A stretch of DNA of 64,000 nt from an uncultured bacterium (lineage in GTDB: Bacteria > Planctomycetota > Phycisphaerae > Phycisphaerales > UBA1924), in NCBI GenBank assembly GCA_965652425.1, contig CBFGVX010000004.1, positions 3,078 through 67,077 of the forward strand, in the 5' to 3' direction. The notes under the pieces are model-generated. The model was not told where the DNA came from and did not search any database. It was given only the letters and a program-made list of their open reading frames with translations. This document shows, piece by piece, positions 6,514-26,683 of this stretch. The position numbers and the translations under genes are program-made. Numbering within the stretch: the stretch's first letter is position 1; each line of letters begins with the position of its first letter.

Positions 6514-6516
6514 GGA

Positions 6517-7848: not shown

Positions 7849-8058
7849 AAAAAGCCCATTCCGAACGAGGAAATATGTCGGTCCAGCCGGATTCACGCCC
7901 CAGAAAGGCAGAAGCCGATAGTCCCTGAGTCGAAGCCATCGGGGGCCGGAATGCCCCCATGCCGCTCGAACATGGTATTCTTTTGGACAGCCCGGCGTAT
8001 TTTCGGACTCTGCCGGGATCCACATTCCACCGACTTCGATCGCAGTGAGGCGAACCGC

Positions 8059-8952
8059 ATGCGTCAATTCAGGATTTCCGGAACCGCTCCTCGTCTCGGT
8101 CTGACGGCCGTCGTCCTCGGAATGGCCGGGCTGTCGCTCGGCGGCTGCGTCGCTCAGGGCGAATACGACACCACGACCACCATGGTGGATTCCCTGGAAG
8201 CTCAGAACGCCCGCCTCCTGCAGGAGAAGCAGACTGCCGAGAGCATCGCGTCTCGGAGAGCCGAACGGATCGGCGAGCTTGAAGCGGCGGTCGCCGCCAA
8301 GGATCGCCAGATCGGCGATCTCAGCACGCGTCTGGACGGCCTGACCCGGAACCTCGGCGATCTGGAAGGTCGCTTGGGCAATGTGAATGTCGGCCCCGCG
8401 CTCGATGCCCAGACCGACCTCGCTCTTCGCCAGCTCGCGGCTCGCTATCCCGATTTGCTCCAGTACGACGCCCAGAAGGGCATGATCCGGGTCGCCAGCG
8501 ACCTGACTTTTAACTCCGGCTCCGATTCGCTTCGCGATGGTGCGCAGGAAGGCCTGCGCCAGCTCGCCCGGGCTCTCAGCGGCGACTCCGCCTCCGGATA
8601 CGCGCTGCGAGTCGTAGGTCACACCGACAACCAGCCCATCTCGAACCCTGCGACCCGTCAGCGATTCGCCAACAACCGGATCCTGTCTGTGTTCCGAGCC
8701 ATCGCGGTTTCCGAAGCCCTGCAAGCGGCCGGGTTCCCGGCGGGCCGAATCGAAGTTGCCGGCTGGGGCCCCCACCGCCCGACGGTTCGCAACAACCCGA
8801 CGGGCGGCACCGCCGCGAACCGCCGCGTCGAGATCTTTGTGGTCCCGATGACGGATGCCCCGCTCTCGGACGCGCCCGCCGAGTCTTCCGCGGGTCGGGA
8901 GATCCCGCAGAGACCCGCACCGACCTCGCCGGACGACTTCCCGATCAAGTGA
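8059..8952 (+). CDS. OmpA-family lipoprotein with N-terminal coiled coil (peptidoglycan-binding OmpA/MotB C-terminal domain)
   Basis: ATG at 8059 lies within the 771-aa track ORF. Signal peptide plus lipobox (LSLGGC), a heptad-like segment (LEAQNARLLQEKQ...LEGRLGN) and an OmpA_C signature (VVGHTDNQPI...NNRILSVFRAIAV...NRRVEIFVV). Confidence 0.85.
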   Translation: MRQFRISGTAPRLGLTAVVLGMAGLSLGGCVAQGEYDTTTTMVDSLEAQNARLLQEKQTAESIASRRAERIGELEAAVAAKDRQIGDLSTRLDGLTRNLGDLEGRLGNVNVGPALDAQTDLALRQLAARYPDLLQYDAQKGMIRVASDLTFNSGSDSLRDGAQEGLRQLARALSGDSASGYALRVVGHTDNQPISNPATRQRFANNRILSVFRAIAVSEALQAAGFPAGRIEVAGWGPHRPTVRNNPTGGTAANRRVEIFVVPMTDAPLSDAPAESSAGREIPQRPAPTSPDDFPIK

Positions 8953-9018
8953 TCGGAAACATCACCTGATTCCTGGTGGATGGTCGCCGCGTACTTCGGC
9001 GCGGAGTAAGGTAGCGTT

Positions 9019-9861
9019 GTGCCCAACGCCGCCCAGAGTTCACAATCCTCCTACCCTGGCGCACTCGCCCCGATCGCTGCGTTCGGAGCGAGACTTTCGA
9101 GTCTTTTTGAACGATTCGGCGCGTTCCTGCGATTCTCATGGAGCGTGCTGTTCGCAATCATGCGGCGGCCTGACTCATGGGGCCGCTGGTCGCGGCTGGC
9201 TCAGCAGCTCGACCTGATCGGTACTCGATCAGCACCGGTGCTCGCACTGACCGGTGTCTTCATCGGAGCGGTTCTGGCCATCGAGGGGTTCGATCAGTTC
9301 GCTCAATTCGGACTGGAGCAGCGGCTCGGGGCCGTGGTCAACATCTCTGTGGTCAAGCAGATCGGTCCGGTGCTGGCCGCGGTCATGCTCGCCGGGCGTG
9401 TGGGTTGCGCTCTGGCGGCGGAACTCGGATCCATGCGGGTCACGGATCAGCTCGACGCGATGCGGGTCATGGCGGCCGATCCGGTCCGCGTGCTTGTGGC
9501 ACCGAGAGTGGTGGCCTGCGTGGTCATGATCCCCGCCCTGACGGTCATCTCGAATCTCTGCGGAATCGCGGGCGGTTGGCTGATCATCGTCGGGGTAGAG
9601 GGCGTGGGCACGGACGCGTACTGGAAGTACACGGCTCAGTACATCGACTGGTGGGATGTGATGACCGGGCTGGTCAAGGCCATATTCTTCGCCCTCGCGA
9701 TCGGGTTGATCTCCTGCTTCAAGGGCTTCACCTGCCGAGCGGGAGCGCAGGGTGTCGGCCGCGCCACCACGGACGCGTTCGTCACCAGTTTCGTTGCGAT
9801 CGTGATCATCAACTTCGTCCTGGCGAAGCTGCTCAACGATCTCGAGGCATTCTTTCAGTGA
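9019..9861 (+). CDS. mlaE: MlaE-family ABC transporter permease
   Basis: GTG start. Motifs VVKQIGPVLAAVMLAGRVGCALAAELGSMRVTDQLDAMRVMAADP and C-terminal TM helices are typical of MlaE/Ttg2B. No mlaF or mlaD is adjacent. Confidence 0.85.
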   Translation: MPNAAQSSQSSYPGALAPIAAFGARLSSLFERFGAFLRFSWSVLFAIMRRPDSWGRWSRLAQQLDLIGTRSAPVLALTGVFIGAVLAIEGFDQFAQFGLEQRLGAVVNISVVKQIGPVLAAVMLAGRVGCALAAELGSMRVTDQLDAMRVMAADPVRVLVAPRVVACVVMIPALTVISNLCGIAGGWLIIVGVEGVGTDAYWKYTAQYIDWWDVMTGLVKAIFFALAIGLISCFKGFTCRAGAQGVGRATTDAFVTSFVAIVIINFVLAKLLNDLEAFFQ

Positions 9862-9870
9862 GCGAAGAGC

Positions 9871-10413
9871 TTACCCCTTCTTGCGATGGATCCCGGTCGC
9901 CCTGATCGTGAGCACACTCTGGTTCGGACGCGCATCGACCGTGCCGACCACGATGACTTCGTCCAGCGGCTCCAGCCCTGCCGAAGTCAGTTCCGAAGAG
10001 ACCGGGTTGCCGCTTTCGTCCACGACGATCACGGTGGCGATGTTGGCGGCGATGGTTTCTGGCGTTTCGCAGCAGTAGTCCCACGGGATGGAGCAGTGAT
10101 CGTCTTCTTTGTCAGCGCAGCTGGGGATGGAGGCATCCATCATCACGAAGGCGGGCGATCCCTCGGTCATCGGCTTGACGCGACCTCCGATGCGTCCGCG
10201 CAGGACGATCTGCTCTCCCTGCTGGGCGTTCTGCTTGGCCTCGCCGATCTCCCGCCACTCGCTCGGTGCGCTGGTGAGGACCCAGGCCGGGCTGCTCGGT
10301 GTGCCTGCTGTGGAACTCGATGACGAGGACTCGCTGGACCGCTCGTTTCCGCATGCGGTCAGCATGAGGCCCGAGAAGGCCACGACGACGAACGATGTCT
10401 TGATTAGCTTCAT
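9871..10413 (-). CDS. Lipoprotein with Cys4 cluster, last gene of the ABC exporter module
   Basis: Signal peptide and lipobox (LMLTAC), a Ser-rich linker, then beta-rich segments flanking SCADKEDDHCSIPWDYCCETPE. It lies 63 nt downstream of the second FtsX-like permease on the same strand. Confidence 0.6.
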   Translation of the reverse strand: MKLIKTSFVVVAFSGLMLTACGNERSSESSSSSSTAGTPSSPAWVLTSAPSEWREIGEAKQNAQQGEQIVLRGRIGGRVKPMTEGSPAFVMMDASIPSCADKEDDHCSIPWDYCCETPETIAANIATVIVVDESGNPVSSELTSAGLEPLDEVIVVGTVDARPNQSVLTIRATGIHRKKG

Positions 10414-10476
10414 ATGAATCTCCTTGAGGAATTGTCTACTACAACGGACATATGCCTGTGGAGAGTGCCACAGGGA

Positions 10477-11649
10477 TCACAACGATTTGAGTGCAGAAGG
10501 GATCGGTAAACGCAGGCAACGAATCGACGGCGGCACCGCACCGACAAGGCCCACAAGCCCGCCGCAAAGAAGCGCCACCAGCATGACGGTCGCATCGATA
10601 TTCATTTCGAACGCGCCCATCGAGAATCTGACGGCAAAGCCGTCCAAGGCGATGTACCCGATGGCAAGACCGAGCACCGCCCCGCAGCCCGCGGCGAACA
10701 ACGATTCTTCCGTGAGGTTCAGCACGATCGCCGACCTCTTGAATCCGAGCGACTGGAGCATGCCGACTTCACGGACTCTGGCCGAGAACGCAGCGTACAT
10801 GGTGTTGAGCCCGCCGAGAAGGCCGCCGAGCGCGATGAGAACGGCGGTCACGATCACCATGATCCGGATGGGCTGGTAAAACGCGGCGATCCCCGCGTAG
10901 TACTCCGCTTCGGTCATGGACACGATTTCGAGATCCAGGCGTGTTTTGGTGAGCAGGTCGATATCCGACGGCTTGGCCGTATCGAGCGCGACAACCACGC
11001 TGGAGATGGTTCCTTCGCGTTTGGTTGCGATCTGCAGATCCGTGATGGGCATCCAGATTTCGGCATTCATGACCGTGGACGGCGCAGCGAATCTTCCGAC
11101 GATCTTCCACGCCCGATTATCGAAGTAGAGCGTTTGCCCCACTGCGAGCCGGTCGTCTGGAAGCCCGAGGCGAACGGCCGTCAGGTTGCCGACCATGATT
11201 TCTTCGCTGCCGGTTCTCGGAAGTCTCCCTTCGATCAGTTCGACCTGAGGGTGGACGAGGACCGCTATTTCTGGTCGTACTCCTCGAATCACGCTCTGGA
11301 TGACGACGCTCTCCGGCGCGGTCCGCACCGGCAGCATCGTGTTGATCTCGGGCGAGACCAGAGGCACATTTCCGGCCTGTTTCAATCCGGTCACACTGGA
11401 AGCAACGATGCCCGCCACGCTCGCGTCGATCTGCGAACGCTCGACTGATTCCTCGCTTCCAGCGCCGAGGACGATCACATTGGTGTGCAGACCATCCCCG
11501 CGGCTGAGCGTGACCTCCATACCCCTGACGAACGCGGTGGCTGCCATCGCCAGCAACACCACAAGCGTCGCGCCGATCAGCGAGGACAGAAGGCGGGTAC
11601 GGCTTCGGCCGAGGTTGCGGAAAGCGTATTCGAAGGGCAGTTGTCTCAT
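10477..11649 (-). CDS. ABC transporter permease, FtsX/MacB-like
   Basis: I chose the internal ATG at 11649 (MRQLPFEYAFRNLGRSRTRLLSS...), which is the typical MacB/FtsX N-terminus. It has a periplasmic domain followed by a C-terminal FtsX 3-TM bundle. Confidence 0.85.
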   Translation of the reverse strand: MRQLPFEYAFRNLGRSRTRLLSSLIGATLVVLLAMAATAFVRGMEVTLSRGDGLHTNVIVLGAGSEESVERSQIDASVAGIVASSVTGLKQAGNVPLVSPEINTMLPVRTAPESVVIQSVIRGVRPEIAVLVHPQVELIEGRLPRTGSEEIMVGNLTAVRLGLPDDRLAVGQTLYFDNRAWKIVGRFAAPSTVMNAEIWMPITDLQIATKREGTISSVVVALDTAKPSDIDLLTKTRLDLEIVSMTEAEYYAGIAAFYQPIRIMVIVTAVLIALGGLLGGLNTMYAAFSARVREVGMLQSLGFKRSAIVLNLTEESLFAAGCGAVLGLAIGYIALDGFAVRFSMGAFEMNIDATVMLVALLCGGLVGLVGAVPPSIRCLRLPIPSALKSL

Positions 11650-15675: not shown

Positions 15676-15692
15676 GTGGGCGAACTCGGACT
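15676..15692. repeat. attL core: GTGGGCGAACTCGGACT (duplicate of the tRNA-Val 3-prime end)
   Basis: Read directly from the sequence and identical to 25077-25093. Confidence 0.8.
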
Positions 15693-15750
15693 ACAACATA
15701 GGCCAGATTCCGGCGTAGGTACGGGAGATTCCGAAAGCGGTTCGCAAAAT

Positions 15751-15768
15751 GGCAACACTGGTGACACA
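15751..15768. repeat. 18-bp repeat GGCAACACTGGTGACACA (left-arm copy), candidate arm-type recombinase site
   Basis: Identical 18-mer at 24924-24941. A partial copy GGCAACAC lies at 24947-24954 and an inverted 11-mer at 19668-19678. Confidence 0.45.
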
Positions 15769-16007
15769 ACCCCACTATGCGAGGACTTGGAACGCATCGC
15801 TGAGGCGTGGCCACACCTGACCGAACCGATCCGGGCTGCGATCCTGTCATTGATCCAGACAGGCCCGCAGGCCGTTTCTATGGCCGACTGAGCCGCGAGA
15901 CATTCCCGACACCCCTACCACCGTCGGGTGGCCTGTACCGGGCTGCTCGGCGGTGTTTTCATGGGCGTGATAGTCTGCGACGCGAACCCCTAGACGGAGC
16001 GCGACAT

Positions 16008-16436
16008 ATGCCCACCTATCGAGTCGAAGTGTTGGCCCGCGATGGATCAACCGTCGACCCTCTCATCATCGAAGCGCCGGACGCGCAAGCGGCCAAAGCG
16101 ATCGCCAGCGACCGGGGATGGATCGTGGGCAAGGCAGAGCCGATCATGCCAGAGATGGTTGAGCGGCCAGCCGCTACCCCTGTCGTCGATGACAATGATG
16201 AGGCGAATGAGCGGTTCGGTGTAATGAGCATGATTCCGCTGTTCTCGGCAGTGGTGATCATTGTGGGAGTGATATGGGTTCTCGCGTCTTGGCAGATGTC
16301 CACCACGAGCGGCAGCACCTACAACATTGGATTGATCGCTGACCGCGAAGCCGCCTTAGGCATAGGCCGCACGATTCTGACTTGTGGCGTGATTGGGCTG
16401 ATCGGCTCGGAGATCATCCGCGCGATCAAGGGGTGA
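16008..16436 (+). CDS. Small membrane protein (soluble N-terminal domain plus 2 TM helices), island cargo
   Basis: ATG at 16008 within track ORF 15807-16436. N-terminus MPTYRVEVLARDGSTVDPLIIEAPDAQAAKAIASDRGWIVGKAEP, followed by two hydrophobic helices. Confidence 0.5.
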   Translation: MPTYRVEVLARDGSTVDPLIIEAPDAQAAKAIASDRGWIVGKAEPIMPEMVERPAATPVVDDNDEANERFGVMSMIPLFSAVVIIVGVIWVLASWQMSTTSGSTYNIGLIADREAALGIGRTILTCGVIGLIGSEIIRAIKG

Positions 16437-16907
16437 TCGGCGTTTGTCTTTTCATCGGCGCTGACACCGACACGGCTGGCGGGGTCAAAAACGCGGTCTG
16501 TGTCAGTGCGAACGCGAGGGATGCTGACCGACTCGCAACCGGGCCGAATCCCGAAGATTGCCAGCGACAGCCGAAGGCGCTCAGGTTTTCGCACCTGATC
16601 ACCTTCGAGAGCATCTTCAGCACACCTTCGAGGCGAACACCCACAACCGACAACCGATGGCCCACGCGACACCCGGCACACTGACGGTTCGCAAGCGCTC
16701 AAAGTGTCACCCGAACTACTGGCCCGCTGCCCGAACCCGCTACGGGGTTAACGGGAAAAAACCGCACAGACCCGCACAGAGAAACAATGCCCGGAGAACG
16801 CCCGGATTCGTTCAGCATTCGCGCGCGCCCATGCGTTAGAAGTGTGCATTCACTTCACTTGCCGCAGGTGCGGCGCTTCGCGCAGGGCGCGAGAAAGCGA
16901 GAACACG

Positions 16908-17690
16908 ATGACGAATGCAGTAGCAGCCGTGCGGCAACGATTCGCCGCGAAACGAACCGAAGAATCGACTGCCCGCGAGCGCATCGAGGAAGCCGCTGCG
17001 AAGGCGGCAACGGGCGGCAAGGTCGACGATGCGAAGATCGTGGCCGACCTAGAACTCGCTGGGCTGACCGATGCGGACTTCGCACGCAAGGCCGCGCGGT
17101 ACACCGAACGCGCCGAACTGGCAAAGCGGCTGGGCGATAAGACAGAGGCCCGGCTCCGCACCACCGAAGCCCGGAACACCCTGCTCGCCGCGTCCCGCAA
17201 AGCCCGGTACGCGATCGCTGACATACTCGAAGAATTCATAAAGGCCGCTACCGAGTATCAAGCCGTGGCACAAGCGATCCAGTCCGACGAGCAAGCCGAA
17301 AAGCAACTGCTGGCCACGCTGCCCGATCCGATCCGTCGAGCGTATGAACACGCTATCGAGCAAGAGAGCAACGCCAACTCAGCGAGGCGATCGGCTGAGT
17401 TTCGCGTACTGGCGAATCACGATGAGATCAATGTCTTTGTCGGCATCCTTCACCAATCCAAACAGGCGCTTTGCTCGCACGATCCGACGATGGCAACGGG
17501 TGTGACGCATGAACTGGCCCGATGGATCGGGACGCTGAACACCACACGGGATACCGAGGTTCCGACCGTCCCCACGAACGCCACAAGCAAGCAACTTGTG
17601 CGGCTCCGCAAACTGGCCCGCGAGGTGCGCCCGAGCGTGGCCGAACTCCCGAAGATCGCCCGAAACACCCAAGCGAAAGCGAGCAACTGA
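16908..17690 (+). CDS. Alpha-helical/coiled-coil hypothetical protein (scaffold-like composition)
   Basis: ATG at 16908 within track ORF 16842-17690. The sequence is rich in A/E/R/K with heptad-like stretches. It lies two genes upstream of the prohead protease homolog. Confidence 0.5.
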   Translation: MTNAVAAVRQRFAAKRTEESTARERIEEAAAKAATGGKVDDAKIVADLELAGLTDADFARKAARYTERAELAKRLGDKTEARLRTTEARNTLLAASRKARYAIADILEEFIKAATEYQAVAQAIQSDEQAEKQLLATLPDPIRRAYEHAIEQESNANSARRSAEFRVLANHDEINVFVGILHQSKQALCSHDPTMATGVTHELARWIGTLNTTRDTEVPTVPTNATSKQLVRLRKLAREVRPSVAELPKIARNTQAKASN

Positions 17691-17691
17691 T

Positions 17692-17994
17692 ATGGCCCGC
17701 AAACTGTCCGAACGCGCTGCGAAGGAACTTGGACTTCCCCGTCGACCGTGGAAGACATTCGACCTACCCGAAGACGCTGGCGATACCTGGCTCGAATACC
17801 ACGCGACGCTGCGCTCGCTGGGCGATCCGATCGACTGTGTATCACGCTGGGCCACGAAAGACGGAGAGCGGGTGCTACGCGTCTCAGTCGGCGCGAGCGA
17901 TGTCCGCTGGTTCCGCGAGTGTGTAAAGGCCGATGAGGGGCTGCCCGCATCCGTCAAGCGTGTGATCGTCGCGAAGATCGGCGGCGCGCCATGA
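17692..17994 (+). CDS. Hypothetical protein
   Basis: ATG at 17692, 1 nt after the previous stop. Its stop overlaps the next start as ATGA. Confidence 0.45.
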   Translation: MARKLSERAAKELGLPRRPWKTFDLPEDAGDTWLEYHATLRSLGDPIDCVSRWATKDGERVLRVSVGASDVRWFRECVKADEGLPASVKRVIVAKIGGAP

Positions 17995-18509
17995 TGCACA
18001 AGTTTTCAGGCGTGGCGACCGCTGAAACCGTCGACTTGGACGGCGATGTCATTGTTGCCGCTGGCGTGGCGTGGCCCTACTGGGCGAGAATGAAGACGCT
18101 GTACACCGACCACGAATACACCGTCAACACGGCAATCGGACGGATGACGGGGATTCGTCTGGACGCGCAGAACAAGCGAGTTCTGGTTGACTTCGAGGTC
18201 GATGACAGTACCGAACTCGGACGCGATACCGTCGCAAAGATCAAGGCCCGTATCGTCAATGGCCTATCCATCGGGTTCCGGGCGCTCGACAGCGCGCCAC
18301 CGAGCCGCGAGGAATCGAAGAAGTGGCCCGGCGTTCGGCAAGTGATTCACCGCTGTGAACTGCTCGAATGCAGCGTCACCGCGATGCCGTGCAACGATCG
18401 CGCGATGATCTTCCCCACCACCAAGAAAACCATCGTGATCCCGTCGGCTACCGGCTCCGTGCTGCCGTGGCGCAAGCCGGTTGCCAAGAGAACGATCGTT
18501 CTGGTCTGA
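17991..18509 (+). CDS. HK97-family prohead (maturation) serine protease homolog
   Basis: The pattern FSGVATAETVDLDGDVI..AG......LYTDHE....AIGR.......V.F.V.D.ELGRDT..KI..RI.NGLSIGF....... followed by CELLECSVTAMPCNDRAMI matches the conserved blocks of the Peptidase_S78 (U35) family as I remember them. Confidence 0.7.
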   Translation: MMHKFSGVATAETVDLDGDVIVAAGVAWPYWARMKTLYTDHEYTVNTAIGRMTGIRLDAQNKRVLVDFEVDDSTELGRDTVAKIKARIVNGLSIGFRALDSAPPSREESKKWPGVRQVIHRCELLECSVTAMPCNDRAMIFPTTKKTIVIPSATGSVLPWRKPVAKRTIVLV

Positions 18510-18518
18510 GGTACTGCT

Positions 18519-18854
18519 ATGCCGATTGTGCGACGCGATGAGAATGGCAAGTTTGTACCCGGCACAACCGGGGGACCGGGCCGACCGAAACGGGCGAACG
18601 ATCTTCGGCAGGCCATGCTCGAAGCCGTCACCGAAGCCGACATCCTCGAAGTGTTGGCGCGACTGCTCGAAGCTGCGAAGAACGGCGACCCGTGGGCAGT
18701 GAAGGAACTGCTTGACCGTGCGACCGGCAAGCCGCAATCCATCCTTGACCCCGATGATGACGGCAATGTCCGCGCGATCCAGATTCGATATGTCGTCGAT
18801 CCCGGTCCCGGACATCGCGACCTGATCGACACGAAAGCATTCGATGCCGACTGA
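18519..18854 (+). CDS. Small phage-type protein with GxPGRPK motif (DUF5681-like)
   Basis: FVPGTTGGPGRPKRANDL followed by AKNGDPWAVKELLDRATGKP. I recall this motif pair from small phage and terminase-associated proteins. No search was run. Confidence 0.45.
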   Translation: MPIVRRDENGKFVPGTTGGPGRPKRANDLRQAMLEAVTEADILEVLARLLEAAKNGDPWAVKELLDRATGKPQSILDPDDDGNVRAIQIRYVVDPGPGHRDLIDTKAFDAD

Positions 18855-19263
18855 CCCGTCCGGCGAGTTGCGGCTATGGCGTACCCGGCTGACGCTGGCC
18901 CACGATGCCAAGCGAGGCATCTTCGAGGCCGCAGGCGTGGCCGATAGTGTCCGTACCCTTGTCGACCTGGCTACCGAGGCACTTGACACCGTGGGGGCTG
19001 ACGACACCGACACCGAGAACGATGTCGAAGTGATCGTCACCGAGGCCATGCAACGCTTCGAGTTGGCATGGATGCGATACACGAATCATCCCGGAGCCGA
19101 CACACACCCGGCAGTAATGGAACAGGCGCGGCTGCTCGAAGAAGCGGCGATGTCTGCCGCCCGAATCGCCAAGTGGCGACACTTGCGGATGCTGGCCCGT
19201 ATCGAGCAACTGGAAGCCGCTGTAGCCACGCTGAGCGAGCCGAGGATGTCGACCGATGACTAA
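18844..19263 (+). CDS. Hypothetical protein
   Basis: Same strand as its neighbours, overlapping the upstream ORF by 11 nt. No motif recognised. Confidence 0.4.
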   Translation: MPTDPSGELRLWRTRLTLAHDAKRGIFEAAGVADSVRTLVDLATEALDTVGADDTDTENDVEVIVTEAMQRFELAWMRYTNHPGADTHPAVMEQARLLEEAAMSAARIAKWRHLRMLARIEQLEAAVATLSEPRMSTDD

Positions 19264-19648
19264 TGCCGCCGAAGTGAAGACGGCGATCCTGAAGCGTCTA
19301 CTGGCCATTCACGGCGACCTGCTCACCGCTGGTCTGTCTGGTCCGGTTCAGGAACTTGTCGAACTCGCGTTCGACGGTCTGGACCGTCTGGCCGGTCCTG
19401 TGCTGCCCACCGACGAACTACGCCAACGCCAGATAGCCGCGTCCGAACGCTGGGCTGAGGTGCGCCACCACCTAGCCGGTCTGCCCGATGAGGCCCGGAC
19501 GGACATCGCGGAAGCCGTCGACGAACTCGAACGCGTCACCCATGCCGCGCAGCGAGCCGCTGCACTGAATCACCTGATCCACCTGTGCCACGCCGATCAA
19601 CTCGAAGCCCGGATTCGTGATATGACCGAAGCCGATGATGGGGGCTGA
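19256..19648 (+). CDS. Hypothetical protein
   Basis: Overlaps the upstream ORF by 8 nt. Helical composition, no motif recognised. Confidence 0.4.
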   Translation: MTNAAEVKTAILKRLLAIHGDLLTAGLSGPVQELVELAFDGLDRLAGPVLPTDELRQRQIAASERWAEVRHHLAGLPDEARTDIAEAVDELERVTHAAQRAAALNHLIHLCHADQLEARIRDMTEADDGG

Positions 19649-19929
19649 AACGGGCTGATCTGTGCCGCCAGTGTTGCCATTCTGGTGGCCGATGGCACAG
19701 AACCCGCGATTCTGGCCCGCTGGGGGCGGGTGTTGGAATCCGGCGCGGACCACAACCGCCACGAACCGGCAAAATGTGGATGACCTGACGAAGACCGAAA
19801 ACACGGCTTCCGGTTCGGTAGAATGAACATAACAAACGGGCCGGGATTTGCTCCCCGGTCTGGCGAGGGCGTACCCGGTTCCCTTCCGTACCGGGTGCGA
19901 CCCCCGCACCATCCACGGAAGGATTCGAC

Positions 19930-20763
19930 ATGGTCGAACAGGTAGAAGCCCCCGCTCCCGGTCACATTGTCCAGTTTGTCGAGACTGCGGAACGAATAAT
20001 GGCGGATCAACTTCCCGACCTTGTCGACGATTCAAGCAATGACGGCGACTTGGTAAACGCGGTCCAGACTCTCGTCACACTGATACGCGCACTCGAAGGC
20101 CCGGTGTCTGGTCGAGTCGGCTGGCGATTCATAGCCGTCGGCGAACGGGTGGACAAACTGAAGGTTCGGTCGGGTGCTGTGCTGACCCTGTTGCAGGATC
20201 GTCTGTGCGGGATCGCTGAAGACTTGGGCTTAGACGAGTCGCCGCTGTTCCGTTTGGGGTGCGGAAACTTCGGTGACGACGAAACAGACCGGCTTCTTGA
20301 GAAGATGCGTAGGCGATGCGATAGACGGGATGGAACATCGCCACCCATTGACCCCGATGCCCTGCTCGCAATTGAGTGGGCATGGAACGAAATCAACAAA
20401 AAGAAACTCGAAGTGAAGCCGTTGCCGTCCGAACCCGTCAAGAATGGCGGGATATCGGCTCCGAAACTCGCCCCAAGATACGAGACAGCGATGCTTGCTA
20501 TCGGCTGGGCGCGCAAGGCGCGACCAGACTTGGTTGGCGACGATGGTGAAGTCGAAGTAACGGACCAGTTGTATGAACTGCTCAAGGAAGAATGCCCGCT
20601 TTATCGGTCCGAAGATGACAAGGATTCAGGCAAGCCGAAACTGCCGAACAAGAAATCGTTCGGGCGATACTTGCGCGCGGTCAAGGAAGCCAGCGAGGGG
20701 CCGCGTATCACAGCCGTAGCGAGGGATCACGGCTCATCAGTCGCAAAGGTAGGACGGATTTAG
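19930..20763 (+). CDS. Hypothetical protein (277 aa)
   Basis: First ORF after a 281-bp structured noncoding gap. No motif recognised. Confidence 0.45.
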   Translation: MVEQVEAPAPGHIVQFVETAERIMADQLPDLVDDSSNDGDLVNAVQTLVTLIRALEGPVSGRVGWRFIAVGERVDKLKVRSGAVLTLLQDRLCGIAEDLGLDESPLFRLGCGNFGDDETDRLLEKMRRRCDRRDGTSPPIDPDALLAIEWAWNEINKKKLEVKPLPSEPVKNGGISAPKLAPRYETAMLAIGWARKARPDLVGDDGEVEVTDQLYELLKEECPLYRSEDDKDSGKPKLPNKKSFGRYLRAVKEASEGPRITAVARDHGSSVAKVGRI

Positions 20764-20854
20764 CAGGTCGCGGATTCCTGAAAAAAACTTTCGGGCATCC
20801 ATTGCATTTTAGGACCGTCCGCGAACCATCCGCACCGTCCGTTCCCCGGTATTC

Positions 20855-21079
20855 ATGGCAACTGCTCATGAATATCGGGATCAGCCCGGCGACTCGCGAC
20901 TGCTCAATGCTCGCGAACTCGCTGCCCTGATCGGGACTACTCCGAGAACCATCCTCAACTGGAAGCGCGAAGGGATCATCCCGGCTATCCAAGTCGGGCA
21001 GCGATTCGTCCGGTTCGATGCTGACAAGGTATTCGCCGCACTGGGCGAGGCCGACGACCGGCGGGGGGTGGGCCAATGA
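20855..21079 (+). CDS. Excisionase/AlpA-type helix-turn-helix DNA-binding protein
   Basis: LLNARELAALIGTTPRTILNWKREGIIPAIQVGQRFVRFDADKV is the classic excisionase-family (HTH_17/MerR-like) pattern. Confidence 0.7.
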   Translation: MATAHEYRDQPGDSRLLNARELAALIGTTPRTILNWKREGIIPAIQVGQRFVRFDADKVFAALGEADDRRGVGQ

Positions 21080-21375
21080 GCCGCACCCAAAATGCCCCCC
21101 GGCAGTCGCCAAACTCGCGGGGGACTAGTGATCATGTCGCTGACATTCTATCACGCCGCGAAGCCCGTAAGTATTCCGAAGCGCTCGAAGTCGGTTCACC
21201 GTACCGCACCACGCAACAAACATGCGCGATCCTGCAATGCAGCGAATCCGGTCTTCGCAATCTGCGCAACCGAGGCCACCTGAGCGCGTACACGATCGAC
21301 GGCGTGGGCGTGCGGTTCCACATTGAAGACATCGAGGCGTTTGTTCGCCGCTGCCGAGAAGGGGGCCAGCAATGA
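21076..21375 (+). CDS. Second excisionase-type HTH protein
   Basis: YRTTQQTCAILQCSESGLRNLRNRGHLSAYTIDGVGVRFHIEDIEAFV. It overlaps both neighbours by 4 nt. Confidence 0.55.
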   Translation: MSRTQNAPRQSPNSRGTSDHVADILSRREARKYSEALEVGSPYRTTQQTCAILQCSESGLRNLRNRGHLSAYTIDGVGVRFHIEDIEAFVRRCREGGQQ

Positions 21376-23456
21376 ACCACACCCTCGAAGACGCATTCGA
21401 CTTGGCGCACCGTGGATTCAGCGTGATCCCGGTTCCGCACTGTAAGAAGGGGCCGACGCTGAAGGGTTGGCAAAACCTAAGACTGACCGCCGATGACTTG
21501 CCCCGATACTTCAATGGCCAGCCGTCCAACTTCGGCATCCTGCTCGGCGAGCCGTCCGGCTATCTGGTGGATGTTGACTTGGACTGCCCCGAAGCCGTGG
21601 AACTCGCCCCGAAGTATCTGCCCACTACCGGCGCGATCTTCGGACGCGAAAGCAATCCGCGCTCGCACTGGCTGTTCCGGGTTGGCACTGACATCGAGAC
21701 GACACGGCACAAAGACCCGCACGACGGGACCACCATCATCGAACTCCGTGGCATCGGCGCGCAGACCGTGGCCCCCGGCTCGGTTCACCCAAGCGGCGAG
21801 GCCGTCCGATGGGACGAGGGCGACGATCCAGCCGTGGTCGATGCCGATGAACTGCTCAAGGCCGTAGAAGCGATCTACAGGGCTGTCCTACGCAAGCGTG
21901 GAAGGCCGATCCCCGAAGCCGACCCAAGCCCCCCGCTACCCGTTGAGACGCGGCACACGGCGACCACGGCGACGCTACAGGCCACCGACGATCCGAAGGT
22001 GATCGACCGTGCCGCGAAGTATCTGGATGCGATGCCGCCTTGTATCGAAAAGCAAAGCGGAGATGACCACCTACTGTACGCGGCGTGCCGCCTGACAAAC
22101 GGATTCGCATTGACCGACGATGCCGCGCTAGATCTGCTCCGAACTGTCTTCAACCCGCGATGCCAACCGCCGTGGCCAGACCATCGACTTGTTTACAAGG
22201 TAGAGCAATCGCGAAAGGTATCGCACAACGAACCGCGCGGTCACCTGCTCAACGATGACCGGCCAGAGGCATCGAAGCCGACATCATCGACCGGCAAAAA
22301 CGAACCAGACCGACCGAAGCAAGCCCCCGCGAGTCTGATCGTCCGCAACTTCGCGGACATCGAACGCGAGGAAATCGACTGGCTTTGGGAAGGCGTGATC
22401 GCGCGCGGCAAGTTGACCATGTTCGCGGGTGATCCCGGACTTGGGAAATCGTTCCTGACTTGCGACCTAGCGGCGAGGGTATCGAGCGGCCGGAACTTCC
22501 CGTGCGGCATGGTCAACCCGAACGGACCCGGACGCGTGCTGATGCTCAACTGTGAAGACGACGCTGGCGACACGATGAAGGGCCGACTCGAAGACGCTGG
22601 GGCGAATGTCGCACTTGTGGACTGGATCGACGGCGCAAAGGTCGGCGAGCGTGATCAGGGGTTCCAGATTGACGCGCACCTGGACCTGCTCGAAGCGTAC
22701 ATTCGCGATCATCCCGATACGCGTCTGGTGACGATCGACCCGGTGACGGCGTTTGGTGGCGATAAAGACTCGGACAAAAACCACGATGTCCGATCGCTGC
22801 TCCGTCCGTTGCAGGAAATGGCAACGCGTACCGGCGTGGCCGTGGTGATCGTGTCGCACTTCAACAAGTCTTCAGGCGCATCAAAGGCGTACCGGACGAA
22901 TGGCAGCATCGGCTGGACCGCTGCGGTTCGCATGGCGTGGGGGTTCGCTGCTGACCCCGACGACGAATCACGGCGGATCATGTTCCCGATCAAGTCCAAC
23001 ATCGCCGCGAATGATGGCGGGTTCGCGTTCACCATCGCCGAAGACGGCGCGGGCCGGGTGGCGCTCGCGTGGGAAGCCGATCGGGTGATCGTCAACGCCG
23101 ACGAACTGCTCCAACCGTCGACTGGGCGCGAGATGTCCGAAGAGATGGCCGAGGCCGTCGCGTTCCTGCAAACCGAACTGGCCCACGGAAGCATGCGATC
23201 CAAGGATCTGTACCGTGCGGCGAGCGAGGCCGGAATCTCAAAATCGACACTGCAACGGGCGAAGGCAAGGGCTGGCGTGGTGTCGGATAAAGACAAAGGA
23301 ACGCTCAACGGCGGCTGGCGATGGATGCTCGCGCCGAAGATGTCCTCGAAGATGCCCACGCGCCAGAACCTGAGCGCCTTCGGCTCAGACGGCGAATCTT
23401 CGGGATTCGAGGGCGATCCGTCCCCCGAAGATGATCAGGACGATCTGCCTGTCTGA
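21372..23456 (+). CDS. Bifunctional AEP primase-polymerase / RecA-fold (AAA_25, RepA-like) helicase
   Basis: N-terminal Prim-Pol motifs (FSVIPV..KKGP..GWQ, DxD in YLVDVDLD, sxH in PGSVHPSG). The central and C-terminal part has Walker A GDPGLGKS and a RecA-like core (VLMLNCEDD, VVIVSHFNKS). Confidence 0.85.
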   Translation: MNHTLEDAFDLAHRGFSVIPVPHCKKGPTLKGWQNLRLTADDLPRYFNGQPSNFGILLGEPSGYLVDVDLDCPEAVELAPKYLPTTGAIFGRESNPRSHWLFRVGTDIETTRHKDPHDGTTIIELRGIGAQTVAPGSVHPSGEAVRWDEGDDPAVVDADELLKAVEAIYRAVLRKRGRPIPEADPSPPLPVETRHTATTATLQATDDPKVIDRAAKYLDAMPPCIEKQSGDDHLLYAACRLTNGFALTDDAALDLLRTVFNPRCQPPWPDHRLVYKVEQSRKVSHNEPRGHLLNDDRPEASKPTSSTGKNEPDRPKQAPASLIVRNFADIEREEIDWLWEGVIARGKLTMFAGDPGLGKSFLTCDLAARVSSGRNFPCGMVNPNGPGRVLMLNCEDDAGDTMKGRLEDAGANVALVDWIDGAKVGERDQGFQIDAHLDLLEAYIRDHPDTRLVTIDPVTAFGGDKDSDKNHDVRSLLRPLQEMATRTGVAVVIVSHFNKSSGASKAYRTNGSIGWTAAVRMAWGFAADPDDESRRIMFPIKSNIAANDGGFAFTIAEDGAGRVALAWEADRVIVNADELLQPSTGREMSEEMAEAVAFLQTELAHGSMRSKDLYRAASEAGISKSTLQRAKARAGVVSDKDKGTLNGGWRWMLAPKMSSKMPTRQNLSAFGSDGESSGFEGDPSPEDDQDDLPV

Positions 23457-23550
23457 AACAGTGTTGAAAGCGGCTGGGGGTGGCCTGCCGGCTCCCCCCG
23501 GCTTTACCGGGTATAGTGTTTCTGTGTCTGAGAAACAGAAGGGAGGATAC

Positions 23551-23814
23551 ATGGCGAAGAAGACATCGGCGAAGAAGCCGATCCGCGTTCCAGTGTTGGA
23601 GCGTGCGCTGCTCGCGAGGATCAACCGGACCATCGAGACCGATGGATTGTTCCTACGGCGTAGCCGACCCGGTACGCGATCCTTCGAGGTGCTGGGCCGC
23701 TACCACCTAGCCAACCGAGACACGATGGCCGTACTCGAAGCGGACATCGACCTAGAGAACTATGCCCGCGAACTGGGGCTGCTCGCTGACCACGAATACT
23801 TGGAGATCAACTGA
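23551..23814 (+). CDS. Hypothetical small basic protein
   Basis: ATG at 23551 preceded by GGGAGGA. Its stop overlaps the integrase start as TGATG. Confidence 0.45.
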   Translation: MAKKTSAKKPIRVPVLERALLARINRTIETDGLFLRRSRPGTRSFEVLGRYHLANRDTMAVLEADIDLENYARELGLLADHEYLEIN

Positions 23815-25118
23815 TGGCAAGTCTGTACGGAAACACGAAAGACGGATGGCGCATCACCTACTACCACGATGGCAAGCGGAAGGCGTTCCGGTTCATGGGA
23901 CCGAAGAACACGGCGCAGACCCTGCAGCGCCGCGTTGAAGAACTGGTTCTGTGCCGCGAGGCCGGGTCAGCGATGACCGTCGACTGCGCGCGCTGGCTCG
24001 CGTCCGTCGGCGAGAAGACACTCGACAAACTGGAACGGGTGGGGCTGATCGAACCCGAAGACCGGCCACAGAAGAAGGAACGGAAGACGCTGCAACAGGT
24101 GGTCGACGCGTTTCTCGCCGATCATGCGGGCAAGGATTCGACGCTGACCCGGAAGACTCAGGCAACCGACAACATGATCGAACGGCTGGACGGCTCGAAG
24201 ATGGCCGACCGTATCACCCCCACCGATGCCGAAGGGTTCGTTCGCGATATGCGGAAGACCTACGCCCGCGCCACAACCGCCCGCACCGTCGGCTACGCGA
24301 AACAGGTGTTTCAGTACGCCAAGCGGCAGGGATGGGTGGAGTCCAACCCCTTCGAGGAAGTGAAGGGCGGATCGACCACGAACGCGACCCGGCAGCACTT
24401 TGTGAAGCGGGAAACGATCGACCGGGTGATCCAGTCCGCTCCGTCTGCACAGTGGCGGCTCATCATCGCACTCAGCCGCTACGGGGGGCTGCGATGCCCG
24501 TCCGAGGTACTGGACCTGACTTGGGCTGACATCGACTTCGAGACGGGCCGGATGCGCGTCCGGTCCCGGAAGACCGAACACCATGAGGGGGGCGCGTATC
24601 GGGATGTCCCGCTGTTCGCCGAAGTCCGTGGCCCTCTCATGGATGTCTTCGATATGGCCGAACCCGGTACGGAACGGGTGATCACCGACTATCAACCGGG
24701 GGCGAACCTGTTTACACACTTCCGGCGGATCGTCAAGCGGGCAGGGGTGAAGCCGTGGCCGCGCTTGTTCCACAACATGCGAGCGACCCGGCAGACCGAA
24801 CTGGCCAGCGAGTATCCGCTCGCCACCGTCTGCGCTTGGATCGGGAACACCCGCGCAATCGCGGCTGGTCATTACCTGCAACTGACCGATGCCGACTGGC
24901 AACGCGCTACGGGCTGTGACAGTGGCAACACTGGTGACACAGATTCGGCAACACAGGCGGCAACGCACACATCCTCACGGATCAGCACAGAGCCGCACGA
25001 CGAATCGGAAGTGTCCGAAACGCAAGGGGATATGGTGAACTGTGCGGAACCGTGCGGCTCCGTGCGGAAGCAAAAGGTGGGCGAACTCGGACTCGAACCG
25101 AGGACCTCGCGGGTGTAA
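23814..25118 (+). CDS. int: Tyrosine recombinase (phage-type integrase)
   Basis: Catalytic-domain pattern RYGGLRCPSEVLDLTWADID, HNMRATRQTELA and AAGHYLQ (R..HxxR..Y). The low-complexity tail runs into the tRNA gene and terminates inside it. Confidence 0.9.
   Translation: MASLYGNTKDGWRITYYHDGKRKAFRFMGPKNTAQTLQRRVEELVLCREAGSAMTVDCARWLASVGEKTLDKLERVGLIEPEDRPQKKERKTLQQVVDAFLADHAGKDSTLTRKTQATDNMIERLDGSKMADRITPTDAEGFVRDMRKTYARATTARTVGYAKQVFQYAKRQGWVESNPFEEVKGGSTTNATRQHFVKRETIDRVIQSAPSAQWRLIIALSRYGGLRCPSEVLDLTWADIDFETGRMRVRSRKTEHHEGGAYRDVPLFAEVRGPLMDVFDMAEPGTERVITDYQPGANLFTHFRRIVKRAGVKPWPRLFHNMRATRQTELASEYPLATVCAWIGNTRAIAAGHYLQLTDADWQRATGCDSGNTGDTDSATQAATHTSSRISTEPHDESEVSETQGDMVNCAEPCGSVRKQKVGELGLEPRTSRV
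24924..24941. repeat. 18-bp repeat GGCAACACTGGTGACACA (right-arm copy)
   Basis: Identical to 15751-15768, followed by the partial copy GGCAACAC at 24947-24954. Confidence 0.45.
25077..25093. repeat. attR core: GTGGGCGAACTCGGACT within the tRNA-Val 3-prime end
   Basis: Identical to 15676-15692. It covers the discriminator base, the 3-prime acceptor strand and part of the T arm. Confidence 0.8.
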
Positions 25119-25151
25119 ACCGAGCGCTCTAGCCAACTGAGCTATTCGCCC
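25078..25151 (-). tRNA. tRNA-Val (anticodon TAC)
   Basis: Hand-folded 74-nt cloverleaf: acceptor GGGCGAA/TTCGCCC, D arm GCTC-AGTTGGCTA-GAGC, anticodon stem CTCGG/CCGCG (one U-C mismatch) with loop TTTACAC, and T arm CTCGG-TTCGAGT-CCGAG. CCA is not fully encoded. Confidence 0.8.

Positions 25152-25195: not shown

Positions 25196-26683
<1,488 letters not shown>

Follow-up and report, generated by a model that had tools for sequence, protein, structure and literature searches.

The window analysed here, a 64-kb stretch of DNA, consists of housekeeping genes and an insert of 9,401 bp (15676-25093), which is flanked by an exact 17-bp direct repeat corresponding to the 3' end of a tRNA-Val(TAC) gene. 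The insert carries 13 credible genes, all on the plus strand, and in addition a 71-codon ORF at 15676-15891, which is the detached tail of the integrase gene located at the opposite end. The CarB protein encoded in the window belongs to the same cluster of at least 90% identity as a CarB whose name refers to a MAG of the Phycisphaerales. Judged by this marker, the host is Phycisphaerales-like and thus Planctomycetota-like, the latter as the first-pass annotation had supposed.

Attachment sites and mobility of the insert

The 17-mer GTGGGCGAACTCGGACT is present in exactly two copies within the window, representing the attL core (15676-15692, plus strand) and the attR core (25077-25093, plus strand); two matches to this 17-mer were obtained in 0 of 100 shuffles. 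ARAGORN and Rfam detected a minus-strand tRNA-Val(tac) at 25076/25078-25151, and the second copy of the 17-mer therefore is the 3' end of the tRNA. The target gene (25076-25151, minus strand) is intact. An uninterrupted site containing one copy of the repeat was found in a near-identical strain (L088/L089). Since the flanks of this empty site differ from the window at only 8 of about 1243 nt, the insertion is recent. Furthermore, a related element, L082, was assembled as a circle, in which a 30-nt terminal overlap yields a length of 8613 bp. Its attP corresponds to the sequence left of attR in the window, followed by the core and the sequence right of attL; the junction was thus observed in the relative and not in the window element itself. 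The circular contig of L082 shows excision or episomal replication, not packaging.

Taken together, direct repeats, an empty attB, an attP (in L082) and an integrase are all in place, as expected for a tRNA-targeting element of the tyrosine-recombinase type. The data show that the 17-bp core was recombined with the 3' end of tRNA-Val by the tyrosine integrase and that the element restores this end. The insert is a site-specific integrative element able to integrate, which confirms the initial proposal, including the repeat coordinates, the overlap with the tRNA, the empty site in a related genome and the circular junction anticipated therein. The element can probably also replicate, as it carries its own replicase.

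Several further DNA sites accompany the att cores. Three copies of the 19-mer TGGCAACACTGGTGACACA are present in the window. The copies at 15750-15768 and 24923-24941 (both plus strand) are candidate P' and P arm-type sites, respectively, the latter residing inside the int coding region. The third copy (19661-19679) is inverted, i.e. on the minus strand, and intergenic, following the structural-like block. L082 likewise possesses three copies at syntenic places (the third at 2294-2312), while none was found in L081, whose Int differs. A strong terminator-like hairpin of 17 pairs followed by TTTTC (15919-15955, plus strand) is located just 3' of the stop codon of the integrase tail and is kept in L082. 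One arm of a 77-nt inverted repeat (16545-16621, plus strand) occupies the leader upstream of the gene for a helical protein and has its partner in the 3' end of the primase-replicase gene; the arms are 78% complementary and the position is conserved in L082. Finally, a GC-rich 13-bp hairpin (23472-23503, plus strand), which separates the replicase gene from the small gene preceding int, is invariant in all three elements, and its pattern did not occur in IMG/VR.

The integrase gene spans the attachment site

In its integrated form, the tyrosine integrase comprises 434 aa (23814-25118, plus strand) and matches Phage_integrase (1e-7) as well as phrog_1 (9e-32). The catalytic residues R...HxxR...W...Y are present, as read by eye from the sequence. 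The gene had been described as abutting the tRNA; its location at the tRNA was correct, but the ORF in fact enters the tRNA gene by 43 nt and derives its last codons from it, ending with the stop codon at 25118.

Unexpectedly, the att core lies within the integrase ORF, and integration exchanges a conserved C-terminal tail. In the circular form, the 71-codon tail ORF (15676-15891, plus strand) rejoins int across attP. The resulting composite ORF encodes 492 aa and aligns without gaps with the 492-aa Int of L082. Within the conserved block of the tail, all four substitutions between the window and L082 are synonymous. The tail ends with the conserved motif WPHLTEPIRAAILSLIQ, which is also found in the Int of L081 despite an identity of only 40%. 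Consequently, Int has 492 aa and carries the C-terminal motif when encoded by the excised form, but has 434 aa and lacks the motif when encoded by the integrated form, and this switch may bias the direction of recombination.

An att core within the int ORF and splitting of the gene upon integration are also features of the archaeal SSV-type 'suicidal' integrases (PMC8371274), and gene-disrupting integrases are considered exclusive to Archaea in that review. However, the SSV type does not apply here: the core is located 3' of the catalytic domain, and the codon for the catalytic tyrosine precedes the split by about 65 codons. The window integrase thus loses only its C-terminal tail and keeps a complete catalytic domain when integrated, and its host is a bacterium.

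Gene content and a conserved head-related block

The first-pass annotation had counted 14 ORFs on the same strand, mostly overlapping or tightly spaced. The same-strand chain is real, but it consists of the 13 genes plus the integrase tail and is interrupted by four sizeable gaps of 471, 281, 91 and 94 nt. The assigned prohead protease, GRPK protein, two HTH proteins, primase-helicase and integrase were all borne out by family matches in Pfam/PHROGs. HMM searches on both strands of the window element yielded no match for capsid, portal, large terminase (TerL), tail, lysis or relaxase genes, in agreement with the earlier reading, and neither strand yielded a coupling protein or any transfer function that could be recognised. 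L082 likewise lacks capsid, portal, TerL, tail, lysis and relaxase genes, and because it was assembled as a complete circle, the gene inventory of the element is complete. None of the element's proteins was matched by PADLOC, i.e. no known defence genes were detected, and no pseudogenes were seen.

The first gene (16008-16436, plus strand) encodes a small membrane protein of 142 aa with hydrophobic segments at approximately residues 68-100 and 115-140. It is 61% identical in L082, absent from L081 and hence not part of the core. It is followed by a gene (16908-17690, plus strand) for a presumably helical, Ala/Arg/Glu-rich protein of 260 aa (18.8% Ala, 5.4% Pro+Gly) with a conserved N-terminus of 100 aa and dN/dS ratios of 0.36-0.49. 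This protein has no family or PDB match, and we infer it to be a candidate scaffold or size-determination factor. A family-specific orphan of 100 aa (17692-17994, plus strand) is translationally coupled to the downstream protease gene. Only three homologues were found in the protein database, and a fold search with its AF2 model (pLDDT 74; beta-alpha-beta-beta-alpha-alpha) gave no significant match.

The adjacent gene (17991-18509, plus strand) encodes a homologue of HK97-type prohead serine proteases (S78; Peptidase_S78 in Pfam, 1.1e-9; phrog_80, 8.7e-16). The Pfam score of 39 bits is above the cut-off of 21, while the TIGR01543 score is below its cut-off. The catalytic residues His41 and Ser93 are invariant across 16 sequences, consistent with membership of the family, and dN/dS is 0.30-0.38. 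The protein lacks the N-terminal extension of roughly 40-50 aa present in its phage relatives. Its nearest outgroup is encoded in the head module of a phage, flanked upstream by a 442-aa ORF in the portal position and on the other side by a Phage_capsid gene.

Next in order is a DUF5681-like GRPK protein (18519-18854, plus strand), whose Pfam match of 1.8e-5 is just under the gathering score and which retrieves PF18932 proteins in a profile search. Relatives are encoded directly upstream of TerL/portal genes in L085, Xanthomonas phage PBR31 and Acetobacter phage phiAX1, i.e. in the TerS slot in all three phage contexts with readable adjacent genes. The AF2 model has a three-helix core, and its top matches in BFVD are a TerS and DUF5681 proteins, none of them significant. 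Gene position in distant relatives and the sub-threshold Pfam match make this protein a candidate small terminase. Downstream, three separate unknowns had been annotated; two of these (18844-19263 and 19256-19648, plus strand) are tandem paralogues encoding helical orphans, as revealed by alignment. L081 and L082 each have one copy only, orthologous to the second (paralogue B), which exhibits a dN/dS of 0.32-0.43. Neither the helical and 100-aa proteins nor the two paralogues have detectable homologues outside the family or fold matches.

A variable region follows, encoding an accessory protein of 277 aa (19930-20763, plus strand) that is not conserved in L081 or L082. Two small HTH_17 proteins are encoded thereafter: a MerR-like DNA-binding protein, predicted to be an excisionase/AlpA-like regulator (20855-21079, plus strand), and an excisionase/AlpA-like protein common to all three elements (21076-21375, plus strand; Pfam 1.5e-9). 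Both have weak MerR matches, while Pfam Phage_AlpA was not matched. The replicase (21372-23456, plus strand) is a fusion of a Prim-Pol primase-polymerase (1.3e-17) with an AAA_25/DnaB-like helicase (6.9e-39). It is 85% identical in L082 and replaced by a DUF3987 module in L081. A conserved 87-aa protein (23551-23814, plus strand), whose gene overlaps the start codon of int, is kept in all family members.

Only three syntenic members of this family, the window element, L081 and L082, were found among billions of proteins searched, with sizes of 8.6-11.1 kb. Common to all three are the helical protein, the 100-aa orphan, the S78 protease, the DUF5681-like protein, a helical orphan, an HTH_17 regulator, a replicase of varying type, the small protein and the integrase, whereas the regions between these core genes vary. 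The core genes have dN/dS ratios of 0.17-0.49, indicating purifying selection. The cargo, described at first as mostly unrecognisable, is not a random set of unknowns, but a conserved block under selection. The family is modular: L081 has a swapped replicase, and dS amounts to about 0.35 in the rep-int part, compared with about 1.0-1.4 in the head-related block. Scans of IMG/VR and JGI metagenomes recovered no member of the family and accordingly give no sign of encapsidation. Neither a helper phage nor virion-derived reads nor a pac/cos link came to light.

Relation to phage satellites and competing explanations

The satellite interpretation of the first-pass annotation is the best available reading, albeit an inferred one. 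In the terms of PMC10085698, only three of the five PICI core components are recognisable by homology in the window element (Type C). By the SatelliteFinder definition, an integrase and a primase-replicase (Prim-Pol plus AAA_25) are present and tail, holin, portal and head-tail connector genes are all absent. For the capsid-morphogenesis gene no homologue was found, only functional candidates (the protease and the helical protein). Also shared with PICI (PMC10085698) are a size below 15 kb, a putative small HTH regulator of the AlpA/MerR/excisionase type, a candidate terS without terL and replicase modules swapped between members. In contrast to PICI, which have divergent int/stl genes, all genes of the window element run in one direction and int comes last, at the 3' end. 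The element moreover lacks a known capsid-morphogenesis homologue, has a presumptive terS, and carries a stand-alone S78 protease and four family-specific orphans. More than 99.9% of PICI reside in Proteobacteria or Firmicutes (PMC10085698), whereas the host of the window element belongs to the Planctomycetota. An HK97-type prohead serine protease beside int, regulator and pri-rep is a feature shared with cfPICI. However, these are defined by their own major capsid protein, portal, head-tail adaptor and connector, and terL (PMC10085698). As only the protease of this capsid set is present, the element is not a cfPICI and, as read from its genes, cannot build a capsid of its own.

P4-like satellites are likewise tRNA-integrating elements of roughly 10 kb with int, an AlpA-like HTH protein and a primase-helicase, and the helical proteins are of Sid-like size and could act on helper capsids, which is a resemblance only. 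Membership is not supported, since no PHROG/Pfam match to sid, psu, delta, epsilon or the alpha primase was obtained; the replicase is of the Prim-Pol plus AAA_25 and not of the P4 alpha type, and L081 uses the DUF3987 module. VEIMEs (PMC9618062) are similar in being small environmental integrative elements with int, primase/helicase and AlpA/excisionase, but no major capsid gene. Some also carry terS or serine proteases, and the group is spread over many phyla, among them PVC (Verrucomicrobia). However, they were defined by sequencing as concatemers from virions, the IMG/VR scans contained no member of the present family, and the serine proteases of VEIME module 2 are described as periplasmic, not S78 (PMC9618062). 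Virion-encapsidated satellites are already on record outside Proteobacteria and Firmicutes, for instance from Verrucomicrobia, Cyanobacteria and Flavobacteria (PMC9618062), and the initial suggestion that a satellite-type element in a PVC/Planctomycetota-like genome would be new biology was therefore overstated.

With moderate confidence, we consider the element most likely a phage satellite whose helper is an HK97-type tailed phage infecting Phycisphaerales-like Planctomycetota. In favour of this are the retained protease and small-terminase-like gene together with the absence of virion or conjugation genes, the defined boundaries and mobility (repeats, empty site, 8613-bp circle), the S78 homology with invariant His/Ser, an outgroup in a phage head module and purifying selection on the core, the DUF5681 relatives in the TerS slot, replicase modularity and the toggling of the integrase tail. 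The combination of int, HTH regulator, pri-rep and candidate packaging/morphogenesis genes without forbidden genes fits the PICI description (PMC10085698). On the other hand, no helper phage and no IMG/VR or JGI member was found, the fold matches of the TerS candidate are not significant, and the core components given for satellite families do not include a lone prohead protease (PMC10085698).

The evidence for mobility and replication would apply equally to a non-packaged, integrative plasmid-like replicative element whose phage-derived block is an anti-phage device, with a decoy protease and a terminase-like protein sabotaging capsid maturation or packaging of infecting phages, and which spreads mostly vertically or by unknown means. 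We regard this as less likely. It agrees with the lack of packaging evidence and of IMG/VR matches, with the differing inter-core regions, and with a close DUF5681-like relative (60% identity) adjoining an MmeI-type restriction-modification gene in L095, which shows that the DUF5681-like gene travels with defence cargo. However, PADLOC matched none of the proteins, and an 8.6-kb element without transfer genes is present in at least three divergent lineages at the same tRNA site. Moreover, interference and hitch-hiking are usually combined in PICI, P4 and PLE, and a TerS-like gene without TerL is a classic signature of packaging redirection.

Small size, an integrase, an own replicase and the absence of virion genes could also point to an integrative mobilisable element that depends on a conjugative helper for its transfer and contains phage-like genes incidentally. 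This appears improbable, as neither relaxase, coupling protein nor transfer function was found on either strand and selection acts on a conserved core related to phage heads. Likewise, no match for relaxase/oriT, or for a coupling protein plus type IV secretion, assigns the element to the integrative mobilisable/conjugative class. A decaying remnant of an HK97-type prophage, suggested by a prohead protease and a TerS-like gene accompanying a tRNA-located integrase, is effectively refuted: the att repeats are exact, the tRNA is intact and insertion is recent, given a strain without the insert differing at 8 of about 1243 flank nt. Furthermore, the gene set recurs in a relative that forms a complete circle of 8.6 kb, and synteny is kept with dN/dS below 0.5 across members at a dS of about 1 and without pseudogenes.

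According to the satellite reading, a signal from the helper phage would lead to excision by the HTH_17 proteins and Int, and the Prim-Pol/helicase would replicate the excised element. The conserved block (helical, 100-aa, S78, DUF5681-like and helical-orphan proteins) would act on head assembly of the helper. Herein, the DUF5681-like protein may serve as small terminase steering the helper's large terminase to satellite DNA, and the protease, perhaps assisted by the helical protein in a scaffold-like role, may process or remodel the procapsids of the helper. We tentatively propose an as yet undescribed satellite family of Planctomycetota, combining a hijacking module (prohead protease, scaffold-like helical protein and DUF5681-type TerS) with an int gene that spans attP and toggles a conserved C-terminal Int domain. 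If true, this would represent a variant of the archaeal att-in-int arrangement that occurs in bacteria and is not suicidal, and provide the element with built-in directionality or a state switch.

Site-specific insertion at tRNA-Val and circular relatives

The 17-mer GTGGGCGAACTCGGACT is present in exactly two copies in the window (15676-15692 and 25077-25093), a number of matches reached in 0 of 100 dinucleotide-preserving shuffles. The sole tRNA of the window, a tRNA-Val(tac) on the minus strand (25076-25151), was detected by ARAGORN and also by Rfam (63 bits). As the right-hand 17-mer coincides with the end of this tRNA, it represents the tRNA-Val 3' end. The first-pass annotation had proposed an integrative element between the two copies and named an empty attB and a circular attP junction as its expected traces. 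Two Logan assemblies hold a cluster-mate (at least 90% identity) of the flanking HlyD-like protein, and in contigs L088 and L089, derived from a near-identical strain, the left flank, a single 17-mer, the remaining tRNA-Val and the right flank are directly joined, with 8 differences from the window flanks in about 1243 aligned bases. This uninterrupted attB defines an insert of 9,401 bp.

The circular junction was found in a relative of the window element. The ends of contig L082 share an exact 30-nt overlap and the contig thus represents a circle of 8,613 bp. Its attP can be aligned left of the core to the element half of the window attR (core 25077-25093) and right of the core to the element half of attL (core 15676-15692). 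A second relative, contig L081, has a 9-nt overlap of its ends, and closure at this overlap fuses its integrase ORF, in frame, with a tail that is a homologue of the left-end ORF of the window element; L081 is probably circular as well. Taken together, the repeat at the tRNA end, the empty site and the circular relative prove the integrative element and show that a tyrosine integrase inserts it site-specifically at tRNA-Val. The insertion is real and recently mobile, and an excised or episomal state exists in a relative.

Outside the element, the window is ordinary chromosome coding for ClpB, AcrB, CarB and peptidases, and the element does not differ from its flanks in G+C content. CarB shares a cluster at 90% identity or more with a protein named from a MAG of the Phycisphaerales, an order of the Planctomycetota within the PVC group, and a more distant relative of the DUF5681-like element protein carries a name from a Planctomycetes MAG. 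The assignment to a PVC/Planctomycetota-like host made from the sequence alone therefore holds. The flanking glutamate dehydrogenase was uninformative for both empty site and taxonomy, its best match in the contig scan being 66% identical and from unrelated phyla, and contigs carrying the IndA-like right-flank protein end within the dehydrogenase gene, before reaching the tRNA. In related strains, four independent Logan contigs (L086, L087, L088 and L089) break near window position 25670-25740, inside the dehydrogenase gene beside the tRNA, which suggests strain-level variation or a repeat.

The att core within the integrase reading frame

The integrase gene of the window (23814-25118) crosses the core and 25 nt more of the tRNA, yielding a protein of 434 aa, while a 71-codon ORF (15676-15891) begins with the first base of the left-hand 17-mer. 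Joined over the reconstructed attP, both ORFs encode 492 aa, which equal the L082 Int (6007-7485) in length and align to it without gaps. The excised-form Int of L081, from 9843-11153 joined to 1-215, comprises 505 aa. Integration hence exchanges the last 66 Int codons for 8 that the tRNA gene supplies and leaves the catalytic domain untouched. The last conserved block, EAWPHLTEPIRAAILSLIQTGPQA, contains four nucleotide differences, each at a third codon position and synonymous, and an indel is present past the stop codon. The motif WPHL[ST]EPIRxAIxxLI, which ends the excised-form Int, is retained in L081 although its integrase is only 40% identical to that of the window, and a terminator-like hairpin of 17 pairs directly follows the tail stop codon. 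These data indicate that the Int tail is translated. The idea of a mere chance extension of int was rejected on account of the equal length without indels, the synonymous motif changes, the retention of the motif and the terminator. The tail contains no Pfam domain, and we speculate that it may bias integration versus excision. To our knowledge, an att core inside a bacterial integrase ORF with exchange of a conserved C-terminal tail is new for Bacteria. According to a review, the "suicidal" integrase arrangement is exclusive to Archaea (PMC8371274); the element does not represent this arrangement, since all catalytic residues of its Int are located upstream of the core.

At the level of protein sequence, the Int stretch from the catalytic domain to the motif evolves fast, with 8 synonymous versus 26 non-synonymous changes. 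Within this stretch, two direct copies of the 19-mer TGGCAACACTGGTGACACA flank the core (window 15750-15768 and 24923-24941, plus strand), both encoding GNTGDT within Int, and an inverted third copy follows the structural-like block (19661-19679, minus strand). All three are syntenic with copies in L082 (7344, 7116 and 2294). The 19-mer is absent from L081, whose integrase differs. This distribution fits arm-type sites co-varying with the integrase, but regulatory sites are likewise a likely role.

Gene content and divergence of the element family

A chain of plus-strand genes fills the space between the two 17-mers. The first-pass annotation had listed 14 ORFs, mostly overlapping or closely spaced; the same-strand chain stands, but we count 13 credible genes in five blocks, which are separated by 471, 281, 91 and 94 nt. 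Family matches largely agree with the identities proposed there: an S78 prohead protease (17991-18509; Pfam, 1.1e-9; phrog_80, 8.7e-16), a GRPK-motif DUF5681-like protein (18519-18854; Pfam, 1.8e-5, slightly below the gathering score), two HTH_17 proteins, a replicase with Prim-Pol and AAA_25 domains (21372-23456) and the tyrosine integrase (phrog_1, 9e-32). Family searches on both strands of the element detected no genes for capsid, portal, TerL, tail, lysis, relaxase or known defence functions, bearing out the earlier reading of a lack of phage structural, lysis and relaxase genes. The inventory is complete, as the circular L082 shows. PADLOC gave no match for the nine non-replicase proteins of the element and a marginal mads_8 match for the replicase (E 0.0093), Rfam found nothing besides the tRNA in the window, and a search for sigma-70-like promoters found none.

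The element family is rare in current data. Only two relatives of the protease were found in a database of 5.8 billion proteins, both on small syntenic contigs (L081, 11.2 kb; L082, 8.6 kb). A full HMMER search with the protease profile across 1.84 billion representatives retrieved two subfamily clusters only (E 1e-113 and 1e-90) before values fall to 5e-24, and the 100-aa protein (17692-17994) has no homologues beyond the family. Exact look-ups of the window pri-rep and protease in the contig index returned no record, and JGI metagenome scans with alignments of the DUF5681-like and helical proteins found nothing. IMG/VR scans with protease, DUF5681-like protein, helical protein, pri-rep and a conserved hairpin returned distant phage relatives only, or nothing.

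Local tblastn and alignments established the same core order in the window element, L081 and L082: an Ala/Arg/Glu-rich helical protein (~260 aa; window 16908-17690), the 100-aa protein, protease, DUF5681-like protein and a ~130-aa helical protein are followed by a variable region, HTH_17, replicase, a ~87-aa protein (window 23551-23814) and integrase. The ~130-aa helical gene is present as tandem paralogues in the window (18844-19263 and 19256-19648) and as a single copy in L081 and L082, and the membrane protein is common to the window and L082 only. In L081, a 218-aa protein and a DUF3987 protein (7211-9449) replace Prim-Pol/AAA_25, while the flanking core genes are kept. Between window and L082, dS is ~0.35 from replicase through integrase (window 21372-25118) and 0.8-1.4, mostly ~1.0-1.4, from membrane protein through HTH_17 (16008-21375). 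The two halves of the element thus have different histories, and this mosaic divergence indicates recombination between element lineages. All core genes exhibit dN/dS of 0.17-0.49, ratios that are rough because dS is near saturation.

Non-coding features are also conserved. A 77-nt inverted repeat (78% complementary; window 16545-16621 versus 23333-23409) has one arm in the non-coding leader that precedes the helical-protein gene and the other in the 3' end of the replicase gene. L082 retains this repeat (8031-8108 versus 5527-5604), and L081 has an analogous 47-nt pair (2419-2465 versus 9446-9492); the repeat might serve RNA-RNA pairing, as an origin, as a packaging signal or as an attenuator. 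A GC-rich 13-bp hairpin, located after the replicase gene and ahead of the small gene preceding int (window 23472-23503; L082 ~5668-5699; L081 ~9514-9545), is invariant in all three elements despite the different replicase of L081, and therefore offers no covariation; it might likewise be an origin, packaging site or attenuator, and its pattern was not found in IMG/VR. The leader of the helical-protein gene (window 16830-16905; L081 2560-2650) contains the conserved palindromes GAAGTG-N5-CACTTC and GCCGCAGGTGCGGC, which could be operator sites of the structural-like operon.

Phage-related genes and the predicted satellite lifestyle

His41 and Ser93 of the protease do not vary across an alignment that includes 13 outgroup proteases. 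These outgroups measure ~220-235 aa and carry an N-terminal extension of ~40-50 aa, which all three element proteases lack. One outgroup protease belongs to a phage head module, with a 442-aa ORF in portal position upstream and a Phage_capsid gene on the other side. Compared to L081 and L082, ~25 aa are deleted from the C-terminal tail of the window protease. As far as we know, S78 enzymes have a single established function, the processing of capsid and scaffold proteins within procapsids. No protein of a cultured phage exceeds 30% identity to the protease, and the DUF5681-like protein of the window has no match among these phages.

Profile search ties the DUF5681-like protein to PF18932 proteins. 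Phage genes of the DUF5681 family with readable neighbours immediately precede and overlap either the large terminase gene or the ORF in front of the portal gene, as seen in IMG/VR contig L085, Xanthomonas phage PBR31 (orf018-orf019) and Acetobacter phage phiAX1; in a fourth contig (L084), 3.4 kb separate the gene from TerL downstream. The AF2 model has a confident three-helix core, and its top BFVD matches include an annotated small terminase and many DUF5681 proteins. None of these is significant, and the protein is therefore kept as a candidate, rather than established, small terminase. Three other contexts (L092-L094) were uninformative. In contig L095 (573-3920), the gene of the closest relative outside the three elements (60% identity) is followed directly by one for an MmeI-type restriction-modification enzyme, and no protease is encoded close by, so this gene also travels with defence cargo. 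For the helical, 100-aa and paralogous orphans and the 277-aa accessory protein, no match was obtained in Pfam, PHROGs, NCBIfam, PADLOC and PDB sequence searches. PDB sequence searches with five alignments and fold searches with two AF2 models, including the 100-aa protein, yielded nothing significant.

A selected, apparently active protease and a TerS-like gene in an element without a capsid or terminase motor of its own are hard to explain unless the element meets foreign capsids. For this reason we rank first, and lean towards, a phage satellite, the best-supported mechanism predicted from the genes. The HTH_17 proteins would serve as excisionase or AlpA-like regulators, the Prim-Pol/helicase would replicate the element circle, and the conserved block would exploit or disturb an HK97-type helper at the stages of head assembly and packaging. 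The satellite proposal of the first-pass annotation is thereby upheld as a prediction, not as a demonstrated lifestyle. The main rival is that the same element deploys its phage-derived genes solely to block phages, which we consider rather unlikely, as interference and hitch-hiking go together in known satellites. Conjugative mobilisation finds little support and appears quite improbable. Least credible of all, with almost no support, is a decaying prophage, since the att sites are exact, the insertion is recent, a complete circular relative exists and the genes are under purifying selection.

PICI are described by core components including a capsid-morphogenesis gene and terS, and by forbidden genes (PMC10085698). 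The element shares int and pri-rep with them, has a regulator-like HTH and carries no forbidden gene, but its terS is only a candidate and a known capsid-morphogenesis homologue is lacking. At best it would represent a "Type C" PICI-like cluster, a class regarded as uncertain by its own authors (PMC10085698). It is excluded from cfPICI, having no capsid, portal, connectors or terL, and from P4-like satellites, having no sid, psu or delta. Gene content resembles that of the environmental VEIMEs, although these are defined by recovery from virions (PMC9618062). VEIME-type elements have already been reported in Verrucomicrobia and other phyla (PMC9618062), which tempers the earlier claim that a satellite-type element in a PVC/Planctomycetota-like genome would be new. 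A search of the open-access literature retrieved no paper mentioning phage satellites together with Planctomycetes.

We know of almost no characterised phages or mobile elements of Planctomycetota. As its ends are exact, an empty site and a circular relative are known and its gene list is complete, the element provides a tractable entry point to this mobilome. Independent of the satellite question, the att-in-int arrangement is open to direct in vitro testing, and the DUF5681 family gains a positional argument for a small-terminase role. Should the element prove to be a satellite, it would widen the range of satellites by another phylum and would hijack its helper by supplying a maturation protease, instead of or besides a scaffold, a strategy not listed among known families.
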